Assembly (NCBI GenBank): GCA_964644815.1
Contig: CAZXXI010000001.1
Location: forward strand, 1-37,194
DNA: 37,194 nt
From: an uncultured Muribaculaceae bacterium
GTDB taxonomy: Bacteria; Bacillota_I; Bacilli_A; RF39; UBA660
Direction: 5' to 3'
The translations under genes and the position numbers were made by a program. Shown piece after piece: positions 2,519 to 29,921 of the stretch. Position 1 is the first letter of the stretch; each line of letters begins with the position of its first letter. A model generated the notes under the pieces. It did not search any database, was not told the DNA's origin, and was given only the letters and a program-made list of their open reading frames with translations.

Positions 2519-3601
2519 ATTATAGAAGACGCATTAAAGCTGTTAAAGAAAATAGAAGAAAAGGGCTATCCGGCCTATATCGTCGGAGGATTCGTAAGAG
2601 ATTATCTTCTCGGTATCGTCTCGTGCGACGTCGACATAGCTACCTCGGCTAAGCCAAAAGAGATTCGCGAAATATTCTCTATAACATCGGGTGAAGCTTT
2701 TGGTAGTCAACGTTTTAATTATCGCGATTTAAATGTCGATGTGACGACTTTTAGAATAGAAGGCGACTATGAATTTAGGCGTCCTACTAAAGTGGAATAT
2801 GTCACGGATGTTTTAACCGATTTAAAACGGAGAGACTTCACAGTCAATGCCATCTGTCTCGATAGCAAGGGTAACATCTATGACCCCTTACACGGCTTTC
2901 AGGACCTCCAAAATCGGCTTATCCGTGTGATTGGTGAGCCGGCAGTCAAATTTAACGACGACCCTTTGCGCGTCATGCGGGCACTGCGTTTCGCTATTAT
3001 GTACGATTTCGAAATAGAGCAATCGGCTCTCGAATATATATTGGAGCATAAAGAATTGATTAAAAAGATATCTTATGATAGAAAGAAGCGCGAACTGGAT
3101 AAAATACTTCTTTCTAAAAAAGCTAAACGTGGCCTTCAATATTTAAAAGAACTGGGTCTTCTCGAAGTGCTAGAGATTTCCTTTGACGATAACTTTAGAA
3201 CGAATTACGACATAATCGGTTCTTGGTCGGAATTGGAGTTTTCGCCAAATTATCCCTTCACTAAGTTAGAGAAGAAACGCATCGCTTTGCTGCGCGAAAT
3301 CGTCAAAAAGAAAACAGTAAACAGAGAAACTATTTTTGAAGCAGGGCTATATGATTCACTGGTCGCTGGCGATATCTTGCGAATAGAACGCGAAGATATA
3401 TTGAAAATATACGACGAATTACCGATACGTAACGACAGCGAACTGGCCATCGACGGTGAGCGAATAAAAAGTATTTTAAACATCCCAACTGGGCCACTTA
3501 TAAAAGAAATCAAAAAAGACTTGCTAAGAGAAGTAATAAGTGGTAATCTACCTAATAGAGACAAAGAGTTAGAAGAATATATAAAAGAGAAGTGGAAGTG
3601 A
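2519..3601 (+). CDS. cca: CCA-adding tRNA nucleotidyltransferase; 5' end non-canonical (ATT/ATA start or 1-nt indel)
   Basis: The frame is open from 2516 and encodes ..ALKLLKKIEEKGYPAYIVGGFVRDYLLG..DVDIATSA..RRDFTVNA, the poly(A) polymerase/CCA head domain. This lies upstream of the ORF-track GTG at 2741. No ATG, GTG or TTG is in frame before 2741. SD AAAGGGTGA at 2504-2512 sits 6 nt before ATT 2519. Confidence 0.8.
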   Translation: MIEDALKLLKKIEEKGYPAYIVGGFVRDYLLGIVSCDVDIATSAKPKEIREIFSITSGEAFGSQRFNYRDLNVDVTTFRIEGDYEFRRPTKVEYVTDVLTDLKRRDFTVNAICLDSKGNIYDPLHGFQDLQNRLIRVIGEPAVKFNDDPLRVMRALRFAIMYDFEIEQSALEYILEHKELIKKISYDRKKRELDKILLSKKAKRGLQYLKELGLLEVLEISFDDNFRTNYDIIGSWSELEFSPNYPFTKLEKKRIALLREIVKKKTVNRETIFEAGLYDSLVAGDILRIEREDILKIYDELPIRNDSELAIDGERIKSILNIPTGPLIKEIKKDLLREVISGNLPNRDKELEEYIKEKWK

Positions 3602-14702: not shown

Positions 14703-15876
14703 ACTTATAATAATTAAATATGGCGAACTGACGACCAAGAAGGGCAACATCAAATTTTTCATCAAAACTTTGAAGAAGAATATCGAAGTAGCTCTAGATG
14801 GGCTCGACTATAAAATCGAATACGACAACGGTCGCATGTTCATCTTTTCAAAAGACTTAGAGAGTATTCAAAAGAAACTCTCCTATGTCTTCGGCATTCA
14901 CGAGATAATCATCGGCTACGAGTATGAGAGCATCGCTATAGAAGACCTAAAAGATAACTTGCGCACATTGATAGACGATATCGATATCGATACTTTTAAA
15001 GTTCGCACCAAGAGAAGCTTTAAGGGCTATCCTCTCACGTCGATGGAAGTGAGTAGAATATTAGGAGGAGTCGTTTTACAGCATAAGAAGAACTCCAAAG
15101 TAGACGTCCACGAACCGAAACTGATGATAGACATCGAAATCCGTTTCAATAAGTCCTACATCTATTTAGATGGTACTCCTGGACTTCACGGCTATCCCGT
15201 CGGCGTCCAAGGCAAGGGCTTACTTATGCTCTCGGGTGGCATCGACTCTCCTGTCGCAGGATATCTTGCGATGAAAAGAGGAGTGCGAATAGAGGGCATT
15301 TATTTCGAAAGTCCTCCCCATACGAGCGACGCCGCTAAAGAAAAAGTAAAAGAGCTCACCAAAATTTTGTCTTCTTACTCGGGATACATCAAACTGCACG
15401 TCATAAATTTTACCGAAATACAGGAGACCATATATAAAAATATTCCTCACGAATATTTGATTACTATCATGCGCCGCATGATGTATCGCATCGCTGAACG
15501 CATAGCACACAAGAACAACGCTAAAATACTCGTAAATGGAGAATCCATCGGTCAAGTCGCGAGTCAGACTCTAGCGAGCATGAGTGTCATCAACGAAGTA
15601 GTCAGCCTGCCCGTCATAAGGCCGGTCGCCTGTCTCGATAAACTGGAGATTATAGATATCTCTAAAAAGATAGGGACTTATGAGACGAGCATCTTGCCAT
15701 ACGAAGACTGCTGTACGATTTTTGTGCCCGAACATCCAGTCATCAACCCGGAACGCGATAAGTGCGTAGATTACGAGGGCCTAATCGACTACGAGACGCT
15801 CATCAAAGAGGCCATCAAAAATGAAGAAGTGTTGACGATTAGAAAAAACGACAAAAAGTTTGAAGATATACTTTAA
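14695..15876 (+). CDS. thiI: tRNA 4-thiouridine synthase ThiI
   Basis: THUMP-type N-terminus (IIIKYGELTTKKGN). PP-loop SGGIDSPVA. The start could also be 14686 or 14689. Confidence 0.9.
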   Translation: MNKLIIIKYGELTTKKGNIKFFIKTLKKNIEVALDGLDYKIEYDNGRMFIFSKDLESIQKKLSYVFGIHEIIIGYEYESIAIEDLKDNLRTLIDDIDIDTFKVRTKRSFKGYPLTSMEVSRILGGVVLQHKKNSKVDVHEPKLMIDIEIRFNKSYIYLDGTPGLHGYPVGVQGKGLLMLSGGIDSPVAGYLAMKRGVRIEGIYFESPPHTSDAAKEKVKELTKILSSYSGYIKLHVINFTEIQETIYKNIPHEYLITIMRRMMYRIAERIAHKNNAKILVNGESIGQVASQTLASMSVINEVVSLPVIRPVACLDKLEIIDISKKIGTYETSILPYEDCCTIFVPEHPVINPERDKCVDYEGLIDYETLIKEAIKNEEVLTIRKNDKKFEDIL

Positions 15877-15898
15877 TCGACGCATTTCGACAAAATAT

Positions 15899-15925
15899 GC
15901 ATACTTTCTATGGTATGCTTTTTTT
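15899..15925 (+). terminator. Rho-independent terminator after thiI
   Basis: GCATAC/GTATGC stem, 8-nt loop, T7 tail. It lies inside the ORF-track 5' extension of the next ORF. Confidence 0.6.
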
Positions 15926-15934
15926 GGTGATGAA

Positions 15935-16339
15935 ATGAGAACCTTTTATATCTTTAAGATAACCCCCGAATTCAAAACGATTACGAAAAATCAGCCGTAC
16001 AATCTTTTTCTCGCACTCGAAAACATCCACACCATGGACAAGAAAGACATCAATCTAGCCGTCAAGATGTACGAAGAGGTGTGTGGTCCCTTCGACATCC
16101 GATCAATCAACCTGTCCCTTTTTAACATCCTACAGGATAACGACTTCTATACCAAGTTTAACAACAACCACTTGATAAATAATTACTACACCGACGAGTC
16201 TTCGAAACTGACCATCTATAAGACTTACCTCCGGCTCAAGTCTTCTCTCAACAATCCTACCTTTTTTGGAGCTCTGAAGGTGTTTCCCGACCTCTTCGTC
16301 ATCGACTTCGAAGAAAAAGATTATTTTTGGTTGTCATAG
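15935..16339 (+). CDS. SirA (YneE)-like protein, putative DnaA-inhibitor family
   Basis: MRTFYIFKITPEF.. and the C-terminal LFVIDFEEKDYFWL resemble B. subtilis SirA (..YTYLIKEEF.., ..FLAMDFNSKRYGWL, from memory). It sits directly upstream of yneF, as in Bacillus. Confidence 0.5.
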   Translation: MRTFYIFKITPEFKTITKNQPYNLFLALENIHTMDKKDINLAVKMYEEVCGPFDIRSINLSLFNILQDNDFYTKFNNNHLINNYYTDESSKLTIYKTYLRLKSSLNNPTFFGALKVFPDLFVIDFEEKDYFWLS

Positions 16340-21163: not shown

Positions 21164-21192
21164 TTGACAAACCAAAATTCGTAGTTTACAAT
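21164..21192 (+). promoter_or_regulatory. Canonical sigma-A promoter of recA (TTGACA-17-TACAAT)
   Basis: -35 at 21164-21169, -10 at 21187-21192, 24 nt upstream of the recA ATG. Confidence 0.6.
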
Positions 21193-21215: not shown

Positions 21216-22268
21216 ATGAAAAAAGAAACGACTACAGCTAATAAAAATAAAGATAAAGCTTTAGAAGAAGTCATGGCCCAAATCGAAAAACAGTTCGGTA
21301 AAGGGGCCATTATGAAACTTGGAAGTGAAGAGCACATCCAAGTAGAAGCGACGCCTACTGGGTCTTTAGGACTCGACATAGCTTTAGGTGTCGGAGGTTA
21401 TCCAAAAGGACGCATCATCGAAATATTTGGACCGGAATCGAGTGGTAAGACGACCTTTGCCCTAGAGGCGATAGCCGAATGCCAAAAAAGAGGTGGCCGC
21501 TGTGCATTCATCGATGCCGAACACGCATTGGACCCCATCTATAGTAAAAATTTGGGAGTAAATATCGACGAATTGCTATTGAGCCAGCCGGATACAGGAG
21601 AGCAAGCCTTAGAAATCGTCGACGCTCTTGTCAAGAGCGAAGCTGTCAACTTGATAGTCATCGATTCCGTCGCCGCTTTGGTACCTAAAGCTGAAATAGA
21701 GGGCGAGATGGGCGATTCCCACGTCGGATTGCAAGCTCGCCTCATGAGCCAAGCGCTGCGCAAACTCTCTGGCACTATCAACAAAACTTCGACGACTGCC
21801 ATATTTATCAACCAGCTGCGCGAAAAAGTCGGCGTCATGTTCGGAAATCCGGAGACTACTCCCGGTGGACGCGCACTCAAATTCTATGCTTCTGTCCGCC
21901 TCGACATTAGAAAGGGCGAAGCTATTAAAAATGGCGACCAAATAATCGGTAATAAGACCAAAGTTAAAGTAGTCAAAAACAAAGTAGCACCACCTTTTAG
22001 AAGCATCGAAGTCGACATAATGTACGGCGAAGGCGTCTCCAAAGAGGGCGAACTTTTGGACATCGGAACCGACATCGACATCATCGAAAAATCGGGTGCT
22101 TGGTATGCCTATAATGGTGAGAAAATCGGGCAAGGTAAAGAAAACGCTAAAATATACTTGAAAGAAAATCCGGTGACTGCTCGCGAAATCGAAGATAAGA
22201 TTCGCGCTCACTACGAAATAGCTGAAAAAGAAGCTAAAAAAGCGAAATCTAATGAAAAAGACGAATAA
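21216..22268 (+). CDS. recA: Recombinase RecA
   Basis: Unmistakable RecA sequence: GPESSGKTT Walker [10 protein letters not shown] Walker B, L2 loop region. SD AGGAGG. Confidence 0.98.
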
Positions 22269-22270
22269 TG

Positions 22271-22299
22271 GAGAAAAAACTCGCTTTTTTCTCTTTTTT
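22271..22299 (+). terminator. Rho-independent terminator after recA
   Basis: 9-bp stem GAGAAAAAA/TTTTTTCTC, 5-nt loop, T6 tail. Confidence 0.65.
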
Positions 22300-22340
22300 G
22301 TGGTAGTATATCTGCGACAAAAAAAGGGGATGATTTAATC

Positions 22341-23318
22341 GTGCTTAAAACATATCTCAAAGAATGCGGACTGACCGACGATAAAATAGATTACGTACTA
22401 AAGTGTTTAAGACTGAACTATCATAAACACGAGACTGTACTTAGCCATCTCGAAGAAAACGTCACCTATTTAAAAGATTTCGGTTTCCAAAAAAGACAAA
22501 TATGTACGATTCTAACGACTTGCATAGCTATCTATCAGATAACAAAAGATTTATTAGAAAAGCGTTTGCAATATTTTTTAGATAACGGCTTGACGACCAA
22601 AGAAGTAATAAAAATCTACTCTACTAGGAGTCGACTCATCACTTTCAGTATAGCTAATATAGAAGGAAAAATAAAAACATATGTTGCCTATGGCTTCAAA
22701 AGAGAAGAAATATTTGCCCTCTGTAGGAAATACCCCCAAATTTTCACTTTGGCACCCGAGACAATTCTAGCTAGAATGAAGTTCATTATAAGCCTTGGGC
22801 TCGCTAAAAAAGAGGCCATGACTTTGGTCATAAAAAATCCCAGCACTCTAGGTTTAACCGAAGAAAATCTATCTGCTAAAATAGCCGTTCTCTCAGCGCT
22901 AGGATTGAAAAATAAAGAAGTGGCTCTCGTCGTAAAGTCTTTCCCAGGAGTTATGAATCTGACACCAAAGAACGTCCAAAGAAAAATAGCACTTTTGCAA
23001 GAGTTCAATTATAATAGTGAAGAGATTAAAAGATTAGTCGTCGGATTTCCTGCTCTTTTGGGCTTGTCCATCGATAATCTGCGCGCAAAACTCGCTTTAG
23101 TTAAAGACTGTGACATCAAGGATTTAATCGTCAAAAAGCCCAAAAACTTAATGCAGAGTAGAGAATTGACTGAAAGAAGATATCTTTTCCTATCTACCCT
23201 TGAGATTAGCAATTTGAGTTTAGCTAACTATCTATTCGCGACGCCAAGTCGCTTTGCTCAAAAGTTTAACGTAGACGATGAAGAATTGAAGAAAAAATAT
23301 GAAAAGGAGATGCAATAA
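22341..23318 (+). CDS. Helical-repeat protein with about eight 35-aa mTERF-like repeats
   Basis: Repeats such as LGLAKKEAMTLVIKNPSTLGLTEENLSAKIAVL / LGLKNKEVALVVKSFPGVMNLTPKNVQRKIALL / FNYNSEEIKRLVVGFPALLGLSIDNLRAKLALV fit the mTERF pattern (G-f-s..e....v...P.il..s.e.l..k). GTG start with SD AAGGGGA. Confidence 0.65.
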   Translation: MLKTYLKECGLTDDKIDYVLKCLRLNYHKHETVLSHLEENVTYLKDFGFQKRQICTILTTCIAIYQITKDLLEKRLQYFLDNGLTTKEVIKIYSTRSRLITFSIANIEGKIKTYVAYGFKREEIFALCRKYPQIFTLAPETILARMKFIISLGLAKKEAMTLVIKNPSTLGLTEENLSAKIAVLSALGLKNKEVALVVKSFPGVMNLTPKNVQRKIALLQEFNYNSEEIKRLVVGFPALLGLSIDNLRAKLALVKDCDIKDLIVKKPKNLMQSRELTERRYLFLSTLEISNLSLANYLFATPSRFAQKFNVDDEELKKKYEKEMQ

Positions 23319-24304
23319 TGGAAGAAAGTATAACTATGTATAGAGATTACGGCATAACGGAATGGAGAGAGAAGTGTCTAGTTTTGACATCCATCGAAAA
23401 AGCTGCTGTCGAAAGAGATTTGCAAGACGAGATAAACTCGCCCTTAGCCGCCATCGTCAAATTGCCTTTTCCACACTTTGCCGCAATTTATTTACAGAGA
23501 TTCCCAAGTGCTATAAATCTCATAAAAGACCCTGCTATCGGCTATAAACTCTACATGTTATCAGACCCCGCTTTGCGACTTGTCATCGAAGAACACCGCA
23601 ATCCGACTAAAATCCGTTCAACTTTGCAAAAAGAGATGCAAATATCTCCTAACACGACAGATGAAATCGACCAAATATTACACATTCCTCTCGAAGATTC
23701 ATTGAAGATTATCAGTTCCAAAGAAAACAACGTAGTGCGCGAGAAGAAATTTTATTATTTGACCCAGTATATCGATTTAAAGGAGGCCAAACGAATAGGG
23801 CTATCCCAAGCTCTGGTTTTCGAATTAGATGGAGTAGACGGTTTTGAGCTTGAGAAAAAATTATCGCTATTGAATCCTATCGCTAGGACGATAGTAGCTC
23901 TTTCTATAGGGCTCTATGGTGAACATAGACATACTTTAAAAGATATATCCGATTGTATTAAAATACCGCCTCAAAAGATTAAGAAAATACATGACTTTTT
24001 GTTGCCGTTACTATTGAAAACTCGTGGCGAAATGGCGCATATTATCGGTTTAAAGAGTGGAATCTTCGGTATGGACGATACGCGCGAGTATACCAATTTA
24101 ACGTACAGAGAACTCGACATAAGTATGGAACTGGCTTACATCAAAGCCCACTTAAACGAAAGAGACCGATTAGTATTGAGTTCTTATTCAAAAAAAGAAA
24201 TCGATATCTACTTGGCGAGTAAGTATTTATTTAAAACGCCGGCTTCCTTAGCAACTAATATGAGTTTATCGCTTGAAGAAGCCAGAAACAGACTTGGGCT
24301 TTAG
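23318..24304 (+). CDS. Hypothetical protein with two sigma-70 region-4-like HTH segments
   Basis: LNPIARTIVALSIGLYGEHRHTLKDISDCIKIPPQKIKKIHDFLL and LNERDRLVLSSY...ASLATNMSLSLEEARNRL resemble the region-4 pattern L..rer.vl.l.yGl....tl.eIa..l.vs...v.... The start overlaps the upstream stop codon (TAATG). Confidence 0.5.
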   Translation: MEESITMYRDYGITEWREKCLVLTSIEKAAVERDLQDEINSPLAAIVKLPFPHFAAIYLQRFPSAINLIKDPAIGYKLYMLSDPALRLVIEEHRNPTKIRSTLQKEMQISPNTTDEIDQILHIPLEDSLKIISSKENNVVREKKFYYLTQYIDLKEAKRIGLSQALVFELDGVDGFELEKKLSLLNPIARTIVALSIGLYGEHRHTLKDISDCIKIPPQKIKKIHDFLLPLLLKTRGEMAHIIGLKSGIFGMDDTREYTNLTYRELDISMELAYIKAHLNERDRLVLSSYSKKEIDIYLASKYLFKTPASLATNMSLSLEEARNRLGL

Positions 24305-25006: not shown

Positions 25007-25035
25007 TTGTAAATTACCTCATTTGATTATATAAT
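25007..25035 (+). promoter_or_regulatory. Sigma-A-type promoter TTGTAA-17-TATAAT
   Basis: -35 at 25007-25012, -10 at 25030-25035, upstream of yebC. Confidence 0.5.
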
Positions 25036-25064
25036 TATTAAAATAAGAAAAGGAAGTGATTCCC

Positions 25065-25781
25065 ATGGGAAGAGCATTTGAAGTTAGAAAGGCGAGCATT
25101 CAGAAAAATGGAGCAGCTCGCGGAAAGATATATACGACATTCGCTAAAGAGATTTATTTGGCGTGTAAAAGAGGTGTGCCCGAAATAGAGAGCAATGTCG
25201 AGCTCAAAAGAGTGGTAGCCAAAGCCAAAAAGCAACAGGTTCCTAATGACCTCATCGATAGAGCCATCGCTAAAGCTAAAGGTGCCGGTCAGGAAGATTA
25301 TAAAGAAGTAATTTATGAGGGCTTCGGACCAGGTGCTAGCACGCTCATAATAAAGACGCTTACCGACAACGTCAACAGAACGGTAGGTGAAGTGCGCGCC
25401 GCCTTCAACAAAGTCCATAAAAGTTTAGGAGTCTCCAACAGCGTATCCTATAACTACGACCACTTAGCTATAATCGGCATCAAAAGCGATAAAGAGACCG
25501 AGCTATTCGAAGCTCTTTTAGATGCCGGTATCGAAATAAGAGATTTAGAAAACGAAGACGGCATCCTCGTCGTCAGTGCTGAAGCTAAAGATTCTTCGCG
25601 CGTCAAGGATGTCATCGAAGAACTCTTTCCAGGCGTAGAGCTCGAAATAGATGAAATAGGGATGTACCCTAAAGAGAAGATTACTCTAGAGGGCGAAGAT
25701 TTAGAAGTGTTCAACAAATTGTATAAGATGCTAGACGATATCGAAGACGTATCTGAAATATATACGAACGTCGAGATGTAG
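25065..25781 (+). CDS. yebC: YebC/PmpR-family transcriptional regulator (YeeN-like)
   Basis: MGRAFEVRKASIQKNGAARGKIYTTFAKEI... is the family's hallmark N-terminus. About 238 aa. ATG 25065 follows SD AAGGAAGTGA. Confidence 0.92.
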   Translation: MGRAFEVRKASIQKNGAARGKIYTTFAKEIYLACKRGVPEIESNVELKRVVAKAKKQQVPNDLIDRAIAKAKGAGQEDYKEVIYEGFGPGASTLIIKTLTDNVNRTVGEVRAAFNKVHKSLGVSNSVSYNYDHLAIIGIKSDKETELFEALLDAGIEIRDLENEDGILVVSAEAKDSSRVKDVIEELFPGVELEIDEIGMYPKEKITLEGEDLEVFNKLYKMLDDIEDVSEIYTNVEM

Positions 25782-25783
25782 AC

Positions 25784-26659
25784 ATGGTTTTAGATAAGCT
25801 AAGAGATAGAGAGATTTCATTAGTCGCCTCTTTCTTATGCGATAGTCTCGAACTCGACTCATCCTATACAGCGGTTTTTGACCGTTTTCTCACTTCTAAA
25901 AATACATCCACACTAAACGATAAAGAAAAATCCGTTTTGATAACTAAGTTTTCTAGCCTCTATAGGCAAGAGATAATATCATTAATAAAACTTTTGGTCG
26001 ACACAGAAATCGAGTACCTCGACCTTTCCGGAATAATCGAAAATATAAAGAATGTCCTATCCATCCCGGTCGATTATTCTATCGAACAGCTCGAGATAGA
26101 AGAGTTTTTTTCCAAAACGAAGCTTTGCCCTCGTCATGATGACATCGCCATGTCTCTATTTGGGCCGCATTTCGAAGTGCACGCCCTAGCAAAGGATACG
26201 CGCGTAAATCACCACGCCTTAATTCTCATCGAGATTCTAAAAAGATTATACGGTTTCGATATGGACCTCCATGCAGTTAAACTTTCGAAGCCACTCGACG
26301 ACCTCGCCGAAGAAGAGAGGAAAAGATTTATAGAGGTTCGATACGTGATGGACCCACCCGAAAAAAGTGCATTCATTTTCATACCGCAAATGATTACTCT
26401 TTATCAGTACGAAGCATTACAAAATCTCGATGATAAGCTAAAAAGTCTAAACGTCGAGACTAACGTATACGTATCTGCCTATAATCCAAAAACAGACATT
26501 GGACAGTATTATGATACGGTTTATTACTCGAAGCACTTAATAGAAGCGCTTACCTTTTTAAAGACGAGTGATAGCATAACCGACTACGAACTGCCTAAAC
26601 AAATATTTGCTTTTTCTTTCGATGGAGAAAGAAAAGAAGCCACGCCCAAGAAAGGATAA
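25784..26659 (+). CDS. Uncharacterised protein, paralogue family member 1 (291 aa)
   Basis: Shares a C-terminal roughly 180-aa domain with 26671-27591 and 29340-29921 (motifs N.H....EILKRL, IEVRYV, I.P..IT..Q.E.L.NL). Starts 2 nt after the yebC stop codon. Confidence 0.6.
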   Translation: MVLDKLRDREISLVASFLCDSLELDSSYTAVFDRFLTSKNTSTLNDKEKSVLITKFSSLYRQEIISLIKLLVDTEIEYLDLSGIIENIKNVLSIPVDYSIEQLEIEEFFSKTKLCPRHDDIAMSLFGPHFEVHALAKDTRVNHHALILIEILKRLYGFDMDLHAVKLSKPLDDLAEEERKRFIEVRYVMDPPEKSAFIFIPQMITLYQYEALQNLDDKLKSLNVETNVYVSAYNPKTDIGQYYDTVYYSKHLIEALTFLKTSDSITDYELPKQIFAFSFDGERKEATPKKG

Positions 26660-26670
26660 AAATAACGATT

Positions 26671-27591
26671 ATGAACAAAATTACGACAGAAAAAGAATTG
26701 GACTACATATTGAGCGAAAGCCTCACCGATGTCCTCGCATTAGAATACGGATCGGATAAAATAGCAGAGATTTTAAGCGAAATCGACCCTCACTTCGAAG
26801 GAGTACGTTCTCACAATCTCTTTGCCATCGACCGCGCCATTGGTTTAGCAAAGCCAAATTTTCGAGAAGCTCTTAAGAAAAACGTCCAATCTTTTACTTA
26901 TAAAAATGTACTCGAAATATTGGACGAAATAGAAACGAATATGGGCGTTTTACCAGAAGAAGCTAGAGAACAGATAGCTAAAAAACTTTCTATTTTTGTG
27001 CGAACAGTCAAAAATATCCTGCAAATACCCGTTTCTAAAGAACTTAAAACTATCGACTATACCGAGTTTTTTGATCCTTTTCGGGCGCGCACGCTAGGCT
27101 CATCTGATGACATCGGCATATCGATTATCACCTCTCGCCAAAGGATAGATGCAACTCCCACCGACAGCCGCCTAAACTACCACCCCGACATAATTTTTGA
27201 AATTTTAAAGAGACTTTTAAACGACATTCCAGCCGAAGAATTGAAAGAAAAATTGGAGTATTTTGCTGCTCGCTATATCGAAGTTCGCTATGTCGTAAAT
27301 GCCTATGGAGTAGAGGCTATCATCGGCATACCGGCCACCATCACACCCTCTCAATTCGAGGAATTGAAAAATCTAAAAGCTCTTTTCGACGAGTACGACG
27401 TAGTAACTACCACCGGCATAAGAGAGTATGACCCATCGACCAATCGGGGAGATATCGGCTATATGTTATTCGAATCAGACGACCTCGCAGAGGTGATAGA
27501 CCATATCGTTACTAATCAAATGGTAAAGGACTGCGAATTGGACGAAGAGCCGACTATCGTTTTCGAAACATCCCAAAATATTAGCATGTAA
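26671..27591 (+). CDS. Uncharacterised protein, paralogue family member 2 (306 aa)
   Basis: Collinear similarity to 25784-26659 (NILQIPV/NVLSIPV; NYHPDIIFEILKRLLN/NHHALILIEILKRLYG; YIEVRYVV/FIEVRYVM; IPATITPSQFEELKNL/IPQMITLYQYEALQNL). Confidence 0.6.
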   Translation: MNKITTEKELDYILSESLTDVLALEYGSDKIAEILSEIDPHFEGVRSHNLFAIDRAIGLAKPNFREALKKNVQSFTYKNVLEILDEIETNMGVLPEEAREQIAKKLSIFVRTVKNILQIPVSKELKTIDYTEFFDPFRARTLGSSDDIGISIITSRQRIDATPTDSRLNYHPDIIFEILKRLLNDIPAEELKEKLEYFAARYIEVRYVVNAYGVEAIIGIPATITPSQFEELKNLKALFDEYDVVTTTGIREYDPSTNRGDIGYMLFESDDLAEVIDHIVTNQMVKDCELDEEPTIVFETSQNISM

Positions 27592-29339: not shown

Positions 29340-29921
29340 ATGAAAAGAGAAATACGATACATCGACTTCAGCGACATCTTAAATCGCAACATACCGGATA
29401 AATATGGCCACGATGGTCGCCTTATCGCCGCTACAGTTATAACTCCTAAACAGGTATTAAACATAATTCCCGATAAACTCAAAACTAAATATCATTGCGA
29501 GATGTTAAAACGAGTTTTTAACGAAGTATACCCACACAGCCCTTATGAATTCAAAGATTTTTATATCCTTGCGATAGATTATGTCATATCTTCTATCGAC
29601 GAATTCGAAGAGGACACCGCTTACATCTGTTCGCCAGCTTACATCACGTTTGAACAAGCGACTTACTTAAAAGACGTCGTCGATGCCATTAAACAAGCCG
29701 GCTTCGCTGTCGGATTGATTATATGTGATACTTATCCCGGTTTAGACTCGAAACCGAAAAAATTAAAAGCTATCTTCTACGACCCCAGCGAACTCTCCAT
29801 AGTCGATAACTTGGGTGAACACATAATAGAAATCTTTGCAAATAACAACCGCATCGTCGACTCTATAGACATCTTTAAAGAGGAGTCCATCATCTCTACT
29901 GACAAGATACAAAAAATGTGA
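29340..29921 (+). CDS. Uncharacterised protein, paralogue family member 3 (193 aa, domain-only version)
   Basis: KYHCEMLKRVFNEV and YICSPAYITFEQATYLKDVVDAI align with the N.H..ILKRL and I.P..IT..Q...L motifs of 25784-27591. Confidence 0.55.
   Translation: MKREIRYIDFSDILNRNIPDKYGHDGRLIAATVITPKQVLNIIPDKLKTKYHCEMLKRVFNEVYPHSPYEFKDFYILAIDYVISSIDEFEEDTAYICSPAYITFEQATYLKDVVDAIKQAGFAVGLIICDTYPGLDSKPKKLKAIFYDPSELSIVDNLGEHIIEIFANNNRIVDSIDIFKEESIISTDKIQKM

Follow-up and report, generated by a model that had tools for sequence, protein, structure and literature searches.

A divergent bacterial member of the mTERF family encoded between recA and yebC

The window analysed here (the whole 37,194-nucleotide stretch of contig CAZXXI010000001.1, from an uncultured bacterium) encodes, directly downstream of recA, a 325-aa protein that belongs to the family of mitochondrial transcription termination factors (mTERFs). 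An initial annotation had read this product as about eight 35-residue mTERF-like repeats, and had taken the family to be overwhelmingly eukaryotic and its bacterial members to have no described function. We found in this gene not a new kind of protein but a new, divergent representative of one described in 2024. The gene and its elements are as follows.

22341..23318, + strand: mTERF/pTERF-type gene, 325 aa, GTG start, TAA stop, isoelectric point (pI) 9.4
22324..22330, + strand: Shine-Dalgarno-like AAGGGGA, 10 nt 5' of the GTG, by direct sequence reading
22356..23204, + strand: array of eight 35-aa mTERF units (aa 6-288; unit 1 has 38 aa)
23148..23189, + strand: C-terminal module motif LMQSRELTERRYLF (aa 270-283), a variant of L[MI]QSxxL[ST]YARYxF

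The repeat array described in the initial annotation was confirmed. In BLOSUM62 autocorrelation of the protein against 500 shuffles, lags of 35, 70 and 105 residues gave z = 10.7, 8.5 and 6.6, and no other lag gave z > 3.2. Anchor residues together with the helix pattern of an AlphaFold2 model (~10 + 5 + 13 residues per unit) placed eight units, the number expected, at aa 6-43, 44-78, 79-113, 114-148, 149-183, 184-218, 219-253 and 254-288; both peptides quoted as examples are present, at aa 152-184 and 187-219. Anchor glycines lie at residues 10, 48, 83, 118, 153 and 188, with N223 at the equivalent position, and the conserved unit proline is found in units 4-7 (YP, NP, FP, FP) and in unit 8 (KP) and is missing from units 1-3. 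Unit 1 begins right at the N-terminus, leaving no N-terminal targeting extension; the GTG is the earliest possible in-frame start, and the N-terminus aligns residue for residue with those of homologues (MLxxYLxxxG[YF]). A C-terminal tail of 37 residues follows unit 8. Q272 and R280 are invariant in the homologue alignment, and the window protein keeps the family-invariant residues P202, Q272, R280 and F305. The protein is basic (pI 9.42, 52 K+R vs 36 D+E; family median pI 9.0), and its gene has the lowest GC content of the neighbourhood (36.2%; recA 45.2%, window 40%).

Sequence and structure comparisons both identified the protein as an mTERF, in agreement with the initial assignment. Its Pfam PF02536 (IPR003690) match reached 120.9 bits (cut-off 23.1; E = 6.7e-35), in two stretches within profile positions 143-307 of 314. 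A phmmer search of Protein Data Bank (PDB) sequences directly recovered human MTERF1 chains (5CRK, 3MVA, 3N6S; E = 1.4e-8) and MTERF3 (deposited as MTERFD1; 3M66; E = 3e-5), and also matched MTERF4 and mS93, a mitoribosomal protein of Tetrahymena. AlphaFold2, run with 24 homologues, gave a model (mean predicted local distance difference test score, pLDDT, 92.2; pTM 0.80) with eight helix triplets of ~10, 5 and 13 residues. The best 17 Foldseek matches of this model in the PDB were all mTERF proteins (MTERF1-DNA complexes, MTERF3, mS93, MTERF4), of which DNA-bound MTERF1 aligned over the full length (E = 4e-9, TM 0.67, ~330 aligned columns) and MTERF3 gave TMt 0.78 with an rmsd of 3.1. There were no TPR, PPR or HEAT proteins among the Foldseek PDB matches, no Pfam match to TPR, PPR, HEAT or TALE families at E <= 1, and no matching NCBIfam model; BurrH and TALE appeared only low in the Foldseek list (E >= 2.5e-3, TM 0.2-0.4). 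By both sequence and fold, the window protein truly belongs to the mTERF family, and the model shows its eight three-helix 35-aa units and a clade-specific C-terminal module as a predicted mTERF solenoid.

Relatives of this protein are numerous. A word-indexed homologue search with the mTERF protein found no match, and an exhaustive HMMER search was required: among 1.84 billion cluster representatives it returned 1701 matches at E <= 1e-3 and 517 at E <= 1e-10. The exact window protein was not in the protein collection, its highest identity to any family member was 34%, and a genome-contig search with the protein alone found no relative. About 100 of the best 150 matches are bacterial-looking, i.e., ~210-610 aa, rich in K/N/I/Y and without an N-terminal extension or transit peptide, and ~40 are long and eukaryote-like (the top match is from the plant Turnera); this list favours proteins that resemble the query, and repeat proteins align ambiguously. 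The bacterial-looking proteins have in common the C-terminal signature L[MI]QSxxL[ST]YARYxF; a looser form is found in 80 of 162 protein sequences, and a still looser form in none of the clearly eukaryote-like matches. When one genome per GTDB species was scanned with a degenerate DNA pattern of the signature, 91 stretches matched, and open reading frames (ORFs) confirmed with a hidden Markov model (HMM) numbered 184 in 95 loci, with at least one mTERF ORF in 72 of the scanned species-representative assemblies. The carriers are nearly all gut metagenome-assembled genomes (MAGs; median GC 26%) labelled Bacilli, Clostridia, Tenericutes, Mycoplasmatota, Erysipelotrichaceae or 'Clostridium sp. CAG:433', and GenBank labels the relatives of the window mTERF 'hypothetical protein'. 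The bacterial mTERF family is thus large and common yet without annotation in uncultured gut Bacillota, contrary to the rarity that the initial annotation implied. We also observed mTERF ORFs on contigs binned as non-Bacillota, namely L012, L059, L077 and L093 (Muribaculaceae), L051 (Nanosyncoccus), and L028 and L043 (Paratractidigestivibacter), for which mis-binning seems more likely than transfer.

The genes often occur in arrays and next to housekeeping genes. Tandem arrays comprise up to seven mTERF genes, and one deer-caecum MAG has at least 12 genes; one contig with polC, rpsU and ftsW carries seven tandem mTERF-like ORFs by HMM, five of them annotated PF02536, and another mTERF contig carries pseudopilin genes, dinB, tex and polC. 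The neighbour found most often is pheS/pheT, directly 3' and on the same strand in 10 loci (pheT in 4); others are era, recO, spo0A, yigZ, rubrerythrin, alaS and rpsU. A ~130-aa mTERF ORF (PF02536 E = 1.6e-8) often follows the long mTERF gene (L069:1132-1527, L066:284-679 and ~40 other loci; MBQ6546680.1, 'hypothetical protein'). Alignment of 367 units from bacterial members gave the consensus LGY[TS]KE[ED][VI]IKMTKx[LF]Px[IL][YF]SxSIENIKQKIxDLxx, in which positions 5, 10, 13, 27 and 29 are conserved and basic and positions 14, 15, 17, 21, 31, 34 and 35 are the most variable; in the family unit profile, positions 1, 8, 9, 11, 18, 19, 26, 30 and 33 are conserved and hydrophobic. Conserved basic positions combined with hypervariable ones are the pattern expected of a backbone-binding stripe with specificity positions.

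The organelle literature still calls the mTERF family absent from prokaryotes (PMC12977773, 2026; bioRxiv 10.1101/2022.01.18.476766), in keeping with the largely eukaryotic distribution given in the initial annotation. A 2024 screen for DNA-binding tandem-repeat proteins, however, named a 'prokaryotic mTERF-like' family, pTERF, from Bacillota MAGs (NAR 52:10464, PMC11417379). pTERF1 (MBQ3414883.1, from a ruminant-gut Bacillota MAG) carries the cluster label TR_35_C32_2, in which TR_35 presumably stands for a period of 35 aa, to judge from how periods are listed in Table S7 (PMC11417379). It binds ACTNNNAGTC with a Kd of 1.87 nM, as shown by electrophoretic mobility shift assay (EMSA), biolayer interferometry (BLI) and a GFP reporter, and pTERF2 binds a different motif; both show sequence-specific binding of double-stranded DNA (dsDNA) in vitro (PMC11417379). 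The same authors collected ~46 homologues with 3-11 units, found RNA-metabolism Gene Ontology (GO) terms among predicted target genes, considered the likeness to eukaryotic mTERFs structural only ('no obvious sequence similarity' for pTERF1) and left the cellular role open (PMC11417379). The statement that bacterial members have no described function is therefore not supported. As for a family both common and already characterised in Firmicutes, which the initial annotation had raised as a possibility, it is common, and its characterisation is biochemical and does not extend to a biological role.

An indirect link between the window protein and the tested pTERFs came from L070:5497-6873, which encodes a 459-aa protein in a ruminant (goat-ileum) 'Clostridia bacterium' RGIG MAG, i.e., from the same RGIG data set as the source of pTERF1. 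This protein has ~ten near-identical 35-aa units (LGYSREDVIKMTKSLPxIYxLSIxNMQEKIEDMQK), matches PF02536 at E = 4.6e-50 and matches the window mTERF at E = 2e-33 over the full length, including the C-terminal module. Its units, in contrast to the degenerate ones of the window protein, have undergone recent amplification or homogenisation. Given the match between the two, we filed the window protein as a probable divergent member of the pTERF family; by sequence similarity and analogy, it appears to belong to the clade recently given that name.

The mTERF gene occupies a slot between recA and yebC, whose other features are the following.

21164-21192, near recA: promoter-like TTGACA-17-TACAAT, from a consensus scan
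21216..22268, + strand: recA (Pfam RecA E = 1.4e-142, RecA_C E = 2.2e-26), left border of the slot
22270..22299, + strand: terminator-like A/U-rich hairpin (22270-22294) and U run in the recA-mTERF spacer
23318..24304, + strand: partner gene, 328 aa, all-alpha, coupled to the mTERF gene, with a putative sigma-70 region-4-like helix-turn-helix
24334..24978, + strand: the cluster's third gene, a 214-aa ORF containing hydrophobic segments
25007-25035, near yebC: promoter-like TTGTAA-17-TATAAT, from a consensus scan
25056..25781, + strand: yebC/TACO1-family gene (Pfam Transcrip_reg E = 3e-40), right border of the slot

The mTERF gene starts 72 nt after the end of recA, as its placement just after recA had implied. 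The spacer hairpin has a 10-bp stem (GGAGAAAAAA/UUUUUUCUCU) and a 5-nt loop followed by UUUUU, and an 84-nt segment that covers the spacer (22262-22345) has a folding energy of -23.1 kcal/mol (z = -4.0 vs shuffles). A consensus terminator scan overlooked this hairpin because its stem has fewer than three G-C pairs; across the window, the promoter and terminator consensus scan gave the same counts as in shuffles. Given the hairpin and U run, mTERF transcription may therefore depend on read-through or on a weak promoter of its own. At its other end, the mTERF stop codon and the partner start codon share one base (TAATG), with an AAGGAG ribosome-binding site (RBS) 8 nt upstream, a layout that shows the two genes to be, by prediction, translationally coupled.

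The partner gave HMM signals below threshold only (Pfam Sigma70_r4 E = 0.0037, TIGR02997 E = 0.0013). Its AlphaFold2 model (pLDDT 86.7) had local matches to isolated domains of sigma region 4 (TMt 0.70-0.78, rmsd 1.6-2.0 over 57 aa), and sigma factors dominate its Foldseek list, all with E-values > 1; there was no global match in the PDB. We considered whether the partner family might be a hidden mTERF, which was ruled out by nil mTERF HMM scores and by the lack of a global PDB match. A scan of the partner alignment over the metagenome found no match. The third gene, the 214-aa ORF, had no Pfam, NCBIfam, PADLOC or PHROGs match and no tblastn match in L105-L107, and no annotated gene of its size lies between the partner and yebC in L096-L099 or L104-L107.

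Using RecA as query, we found relatives up to 90% identical, in which YebC is 87-90% identical, and compared the contents of the slot (RecA identity to the window in parentheses).

Window: mTERF, partner and 214-aa ORF
L099 (80%): mTERF and partner (50% identical)
L105: mTERF remnant (N- and C-terminal pieces only) and partner
L106 (87%): partner alone
L096-98 (89%) and L107 (78%): two partner paralogues each
L104 (90%): 161-aa ORF and a 687-aa fusion of two partner units

An intact mTERF is missing from the slot in L096-98, L104, L105, L106 and L107. In L105, positions 99-375, upstream of the partner-family gene, match only residues 1-52 and 278-318 of the L099 mTERF, so that an internal deletion appears to have removed the entire repeat array. 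The slot is thus hypervariable among close relatives, with the partner family constant and the mTERF sporadic; the sigma-4-like family is therefore the resident and the mTERF an occasional occupant of the first position. The partner family consists of fast-evolving, multi-copy proteins of ~330 aa without annotation, encoded singly, doubly, as a fused double (687 aa) or, in the unrelated locus L100, as four genes in tandem (window 23318-24304; L096:9491-11589; L100:7976-12001; L104:9856-11919), with the conserved motifs YGISEWREKCLVLS, VKLPFPHF, SQYID and LLNPIARTIxxLxLGLYG. The syntenic mTERFs of the window and L099 are 28.7% identical, as against 91% for RNase Y, 90% for YebC, 80% for RecA, 73% for DnaB and 67% for DnaI, a difference that indicates that the gene has either diverged very fast or been replaced by a paralogue. 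Next to the slot, we also observed three paralogous ORFs flanking yebC and rny (25784-26659, 291 aa; 26671-27591, 306 aa; 29340-29921, 193 aa), which form one unannotated family with a common motif around EVRYV. They are just 27-37% identical to their syntenic counterparts in L099, and in L096 their place is taken by proteins of 514 and 660 aa, one of which matches HipA_C weakly (E = 3e-5); this is a second hypervariable family of the region.

The genes of the wider window are of a Bacilli type. It encodes a C39 ABC exporter (bacteriocin-type), CCA-adding enzyme, dnaD, nth, a class A penicillin-binding protein, recU, engB, der, iscS/thiI, sirA, add, deoD and gatD/murT before recA, and yebC, rny, dnaB/dnaI, miaB, radC and mreC from recA onward. 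The mTERF gene is chromosomal, within a Bacilli-type housekeeping region, and its product is bacterial and cytoplasmic; the call of a bacterial gene stands, given that it sits among recA, murT/gatD, rny, dnaB/dnaI and recU. The classical definition of an mTERF (a nuclear eukaryotic gene with a targeting peptide) does not describe this one, which lies on a bacterial contig with an RBS and a gene overlap and has unit 1 at its N-terminus. The family HMM found no further mTERF paralogue among the 37 window proteins, and an Rfam scan found no RNA gene in the window. An origin in a mobile element or defence system was considered and rejected: the mTERF ORF had no tblastn match in phage or plasmid collections, PADLOC and PHROGs had no family for its product, and the C-terminal motif had no match in viral contigs. 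The sole viral lead was one weak Megaviridae structural match.

Elsewhere in the window, two ORFs on the + strand directly 3' of the C39-peptidase ABC exporter (132-2147) have double-glycine-type leaders (2152-2295, 47 aa, LSIEGGG; 2279-2455, 58 aa, LTKITGGG) and are probably class II bacteriocin precursors encoded with their own processing transporter. The CCA-adding/poly(A) polymerase-family ORF at 2741-3601 (+) matches only head-domain profile positions 63-126 and is short of ~60 N-terminal residues, with no long ORF in the 590 nt upstream; a frameshift, truncation or assembly error is possible. A homologue of SirA (sporulation inhibitor of replication) is encoded at 15860-16339, and in four other MAGs Spo0A lies directly upstream of the mTERF block (e.g., L054:3986-4816), so that at least some mTERF lineages look spore-forming and not like wall-less Mollicutes.

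How might the window protein function? MTERF1 wraps around dsDNA and acts as a directional block to the polymerase. If the window solenoid works like MTERF1 and the two tested pTERFs, its concave basic face would bind a short, specific dsDNA site, and the bound protein would act as an accessory transcription regulator or roadblock (a terminator or pausing factor) for bacterial RNA polymerase. It may work jointly with the sigma-4-like partner, and its specificity would evolve fast through changes at the variable unit positions. A link to transcription is supported by the TAATG coupling to a protein with a sigma region 4-like helix-turn-helix and by the recurrence of the gene pair in L099. We hold this proposal, an accessory sequence-specific DNA-binding regulator or roadblock that possibly acts with its partner, with about even confidence. 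Several observations weigh against it. The link to the tested pTERF1 and pTERF2 is indirect and consists of the same period, source type and Pfam annotation, and identity to all other family members is at most 34%. The pTERF1 motif ACTNNNAGTC occurs once in the window against 4.3 expected, and that single match (22623-22632) lies inside the mTERF gene and is consistent with chance. The sigma-4 assignment of the partner comes from sub-threshold HMM scores and a local structural match with Foldseek E > 1, and the pairing is found just in the window, L099 and the L105 remnant, the partner being without mTERF in most relatives. Finally, for several eukaryotic mTERFs (MTERF4, mS93) the binding target is RNA or ribosomes and not DNA, and the neighbours rny, yebC and der, and pheST and era elsewhere, also fit a role in RNA biology or translation.

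These last points lead to an alternative that we regard as possible but unlikely, in which the protein would bind RNA during rRNA maturation, ribosome assembly or RNA processing, like MTERF3, MTERF4-NSUN4, mTERF9 and mS93. In Foldseek, MTERF3 (TMt 0.78), mS93 in a mitoribosome and MTERF4 on assembly intermediates match nearly as well as MTERF1; rny and yebC adjoin the locus, der and engB lie upstream, and pheS/pheT, era, alaS and rpsU accompany mTERF genes in other MAGs. RNA-metabolism GO terms also appear among predicted pTERF targets (PMC11417379). However, the sole family members tested bind dsDNA with nanomolar affinity at defined motifs (PMC11417379), and a core ribosome-biogenesis factor would be unlikely to be sporadic among relatives with 80-90% RecA identity or to diverge to 29%. 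Arrays of up to 7 divergent paralogues likewise suit diversified specificities more than one conserved RNA target. Alternatively, the protein could serve its sigma-4-like partner chiefly as a protein-protein adaptor, in the way that MTERF4 serves NSUN4, with the partner giving the nucleic-acid specificity. The one-base TAATG overlap and its recurrence as a pair in L099 would fit such a role, as would the presence of MTERF4-NSUN4 complexes among the structural matches. A second partner-family unit stands at the mTERF position, either separate (L096-98, L107) or fused (L104), and this replacement of the mTERF hints at a functional unit assembled from two subunits. We nonetheless find the adaptor role decidedly improbable, given that most bacterial mTERF genes elsewhere lack a partner-family neighbour (tblastn with the partner gave 0 matches in the 95 loci), and that the conserved basic stripe and pI of 9.4 favour direct contact with nucleic acid.

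Two further explanations would deny the gene a function or its identity as a bacterial mTERF. In the first, which is very improbable, the gene would currently have no function and would be a passenger in a recombination hot spot, whether dispensable, decaying or acquired not long ago: although the gene is sporadic in close relatives, internally deleted in L105, lower in GC (36.2%) than recA (45.2%) or the window (40%) and without a relative above 34% identity, it is an intact 325-codon ORF with an RBS and predicted translational coupling, and its product keeps the family-invariant residues and is modelled with eight units and the C-terminal module at pLDDT 92. An artefact, whether eukaryotic contamination, a chimeric assembly or a mislabelled TPR, PPR, HEAT or TALE repeat class, might be suspected because mTERFs are classically eukaryotic and because BurrH and TALE appear low in the Foldseek list. 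This explanation is refuted: the gene stands on the same strand as recA and the bacterial genes that flank it, with no break, and overlaps the next gene, the same arrangement recurs in the independent assembly L099, the protein has no targeting extension, Pfam gave no TPR, PPR or HEAT match, and the TM-scores for TALE and BurrH are just 0.2-0.4. The proposed DNA-binding regulator or roadblock can also be extended to the family, in a version that is speculative and rather improbable. Bacterial mTERFs would be major, fast-diversifying, programmable DNA-binding regulators or terminators in AT-rich gut Bacillota (dozens of species, with up to at least 12 genes per genome), maybe sharing an origin with organellar mTERFs in either direction of transfer, and the window mTERF and sigma-4-like protein would form an interchangeable two-subunit DNA-recognition cassette in which the mTERF replaces one of two sigma-4-like units.

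The window gene itself is one more divergent member of its family. What is new is the clear sequence-level homology of the bacterial clade to canonical mTERFs, the size and taxonomic spread of that clade and its C-terminal signature, and the tandem arrays, ~130-aa companion ORF and pheST association. At this locus, the sigma-4-like partner, the hypervariable recA-yebC slot and the pattern of mTERF presence and absence are new. These results correct surveys and reviews that, as late as 2026, deny prokaryotic mTERFs, and the existence of a large bacterial clade bears on the origin of the organellar family. The bacterial setting could also serve for studying the way in which an mTERF solenoid halts or regulates a multisubunit RNA polymerase of bacterial type, a question also open for plastid mTERFs. 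Programmable DNA binders might be derived from the family, given its variable unit positions and the demonstrated difference in specificity between pTERF1 and pTERF2.

Among known systems, the window protein resembles pTERFs in its Bacillota MAG origin, in its tandem 35-aa three-helix units (eight, within the range of 3-11) and in the GenBank label of 'hypothetical protein' only. It differs in that its units are degenerate rather than near-identical, in its direct sequence similarity to human MTERF1 and PF02536, in its C-terminal signature variant (TERRY in place of SYARY) and in its pairing with a sigma-4-like protein. To MTERF1 (3MVA, 3N6S) it is similar in full-length fold (TM 0.67), homology (E = 1e-8), size and basic charge; however, the two are just 19-20% identical, and the window protein lacks an organellar targeting sequence, has the bacterial C-terminal module and would face a multisubunit bacterial RNA polymerase rather than the phage-type POLRMT. 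TALE, BurrH (Bat) and STAR proteins likewise have bacterial 33-35-aa repeats, a DNA-wrapping alpha-solenoid and variable specificity positions, but their unit has two helices and belongs to another fold family, and the window protein has no Pfam TAL-effector match. MTERF3, MTERF4-NSUN4, mS93 and the plant plastid mTERFs have the same fold (MTERF3 TMt 0.78, rmsd 3.1), and several of them bind RNA or ribosomes or serve as adaptors; in contrast to the window protein, they are nucleus-encoded and organelle-targeted, and never operon-encoded. Plant plastid mTERFs (e.g., mTERF5/MDA1 and mTERF9) are described in the literature as acting on or with the bacterial-type RNA polymerase PEP and on rRNA (PMC7772139), which shows that bacterial-type machinery can accommodate the mTERF fold.

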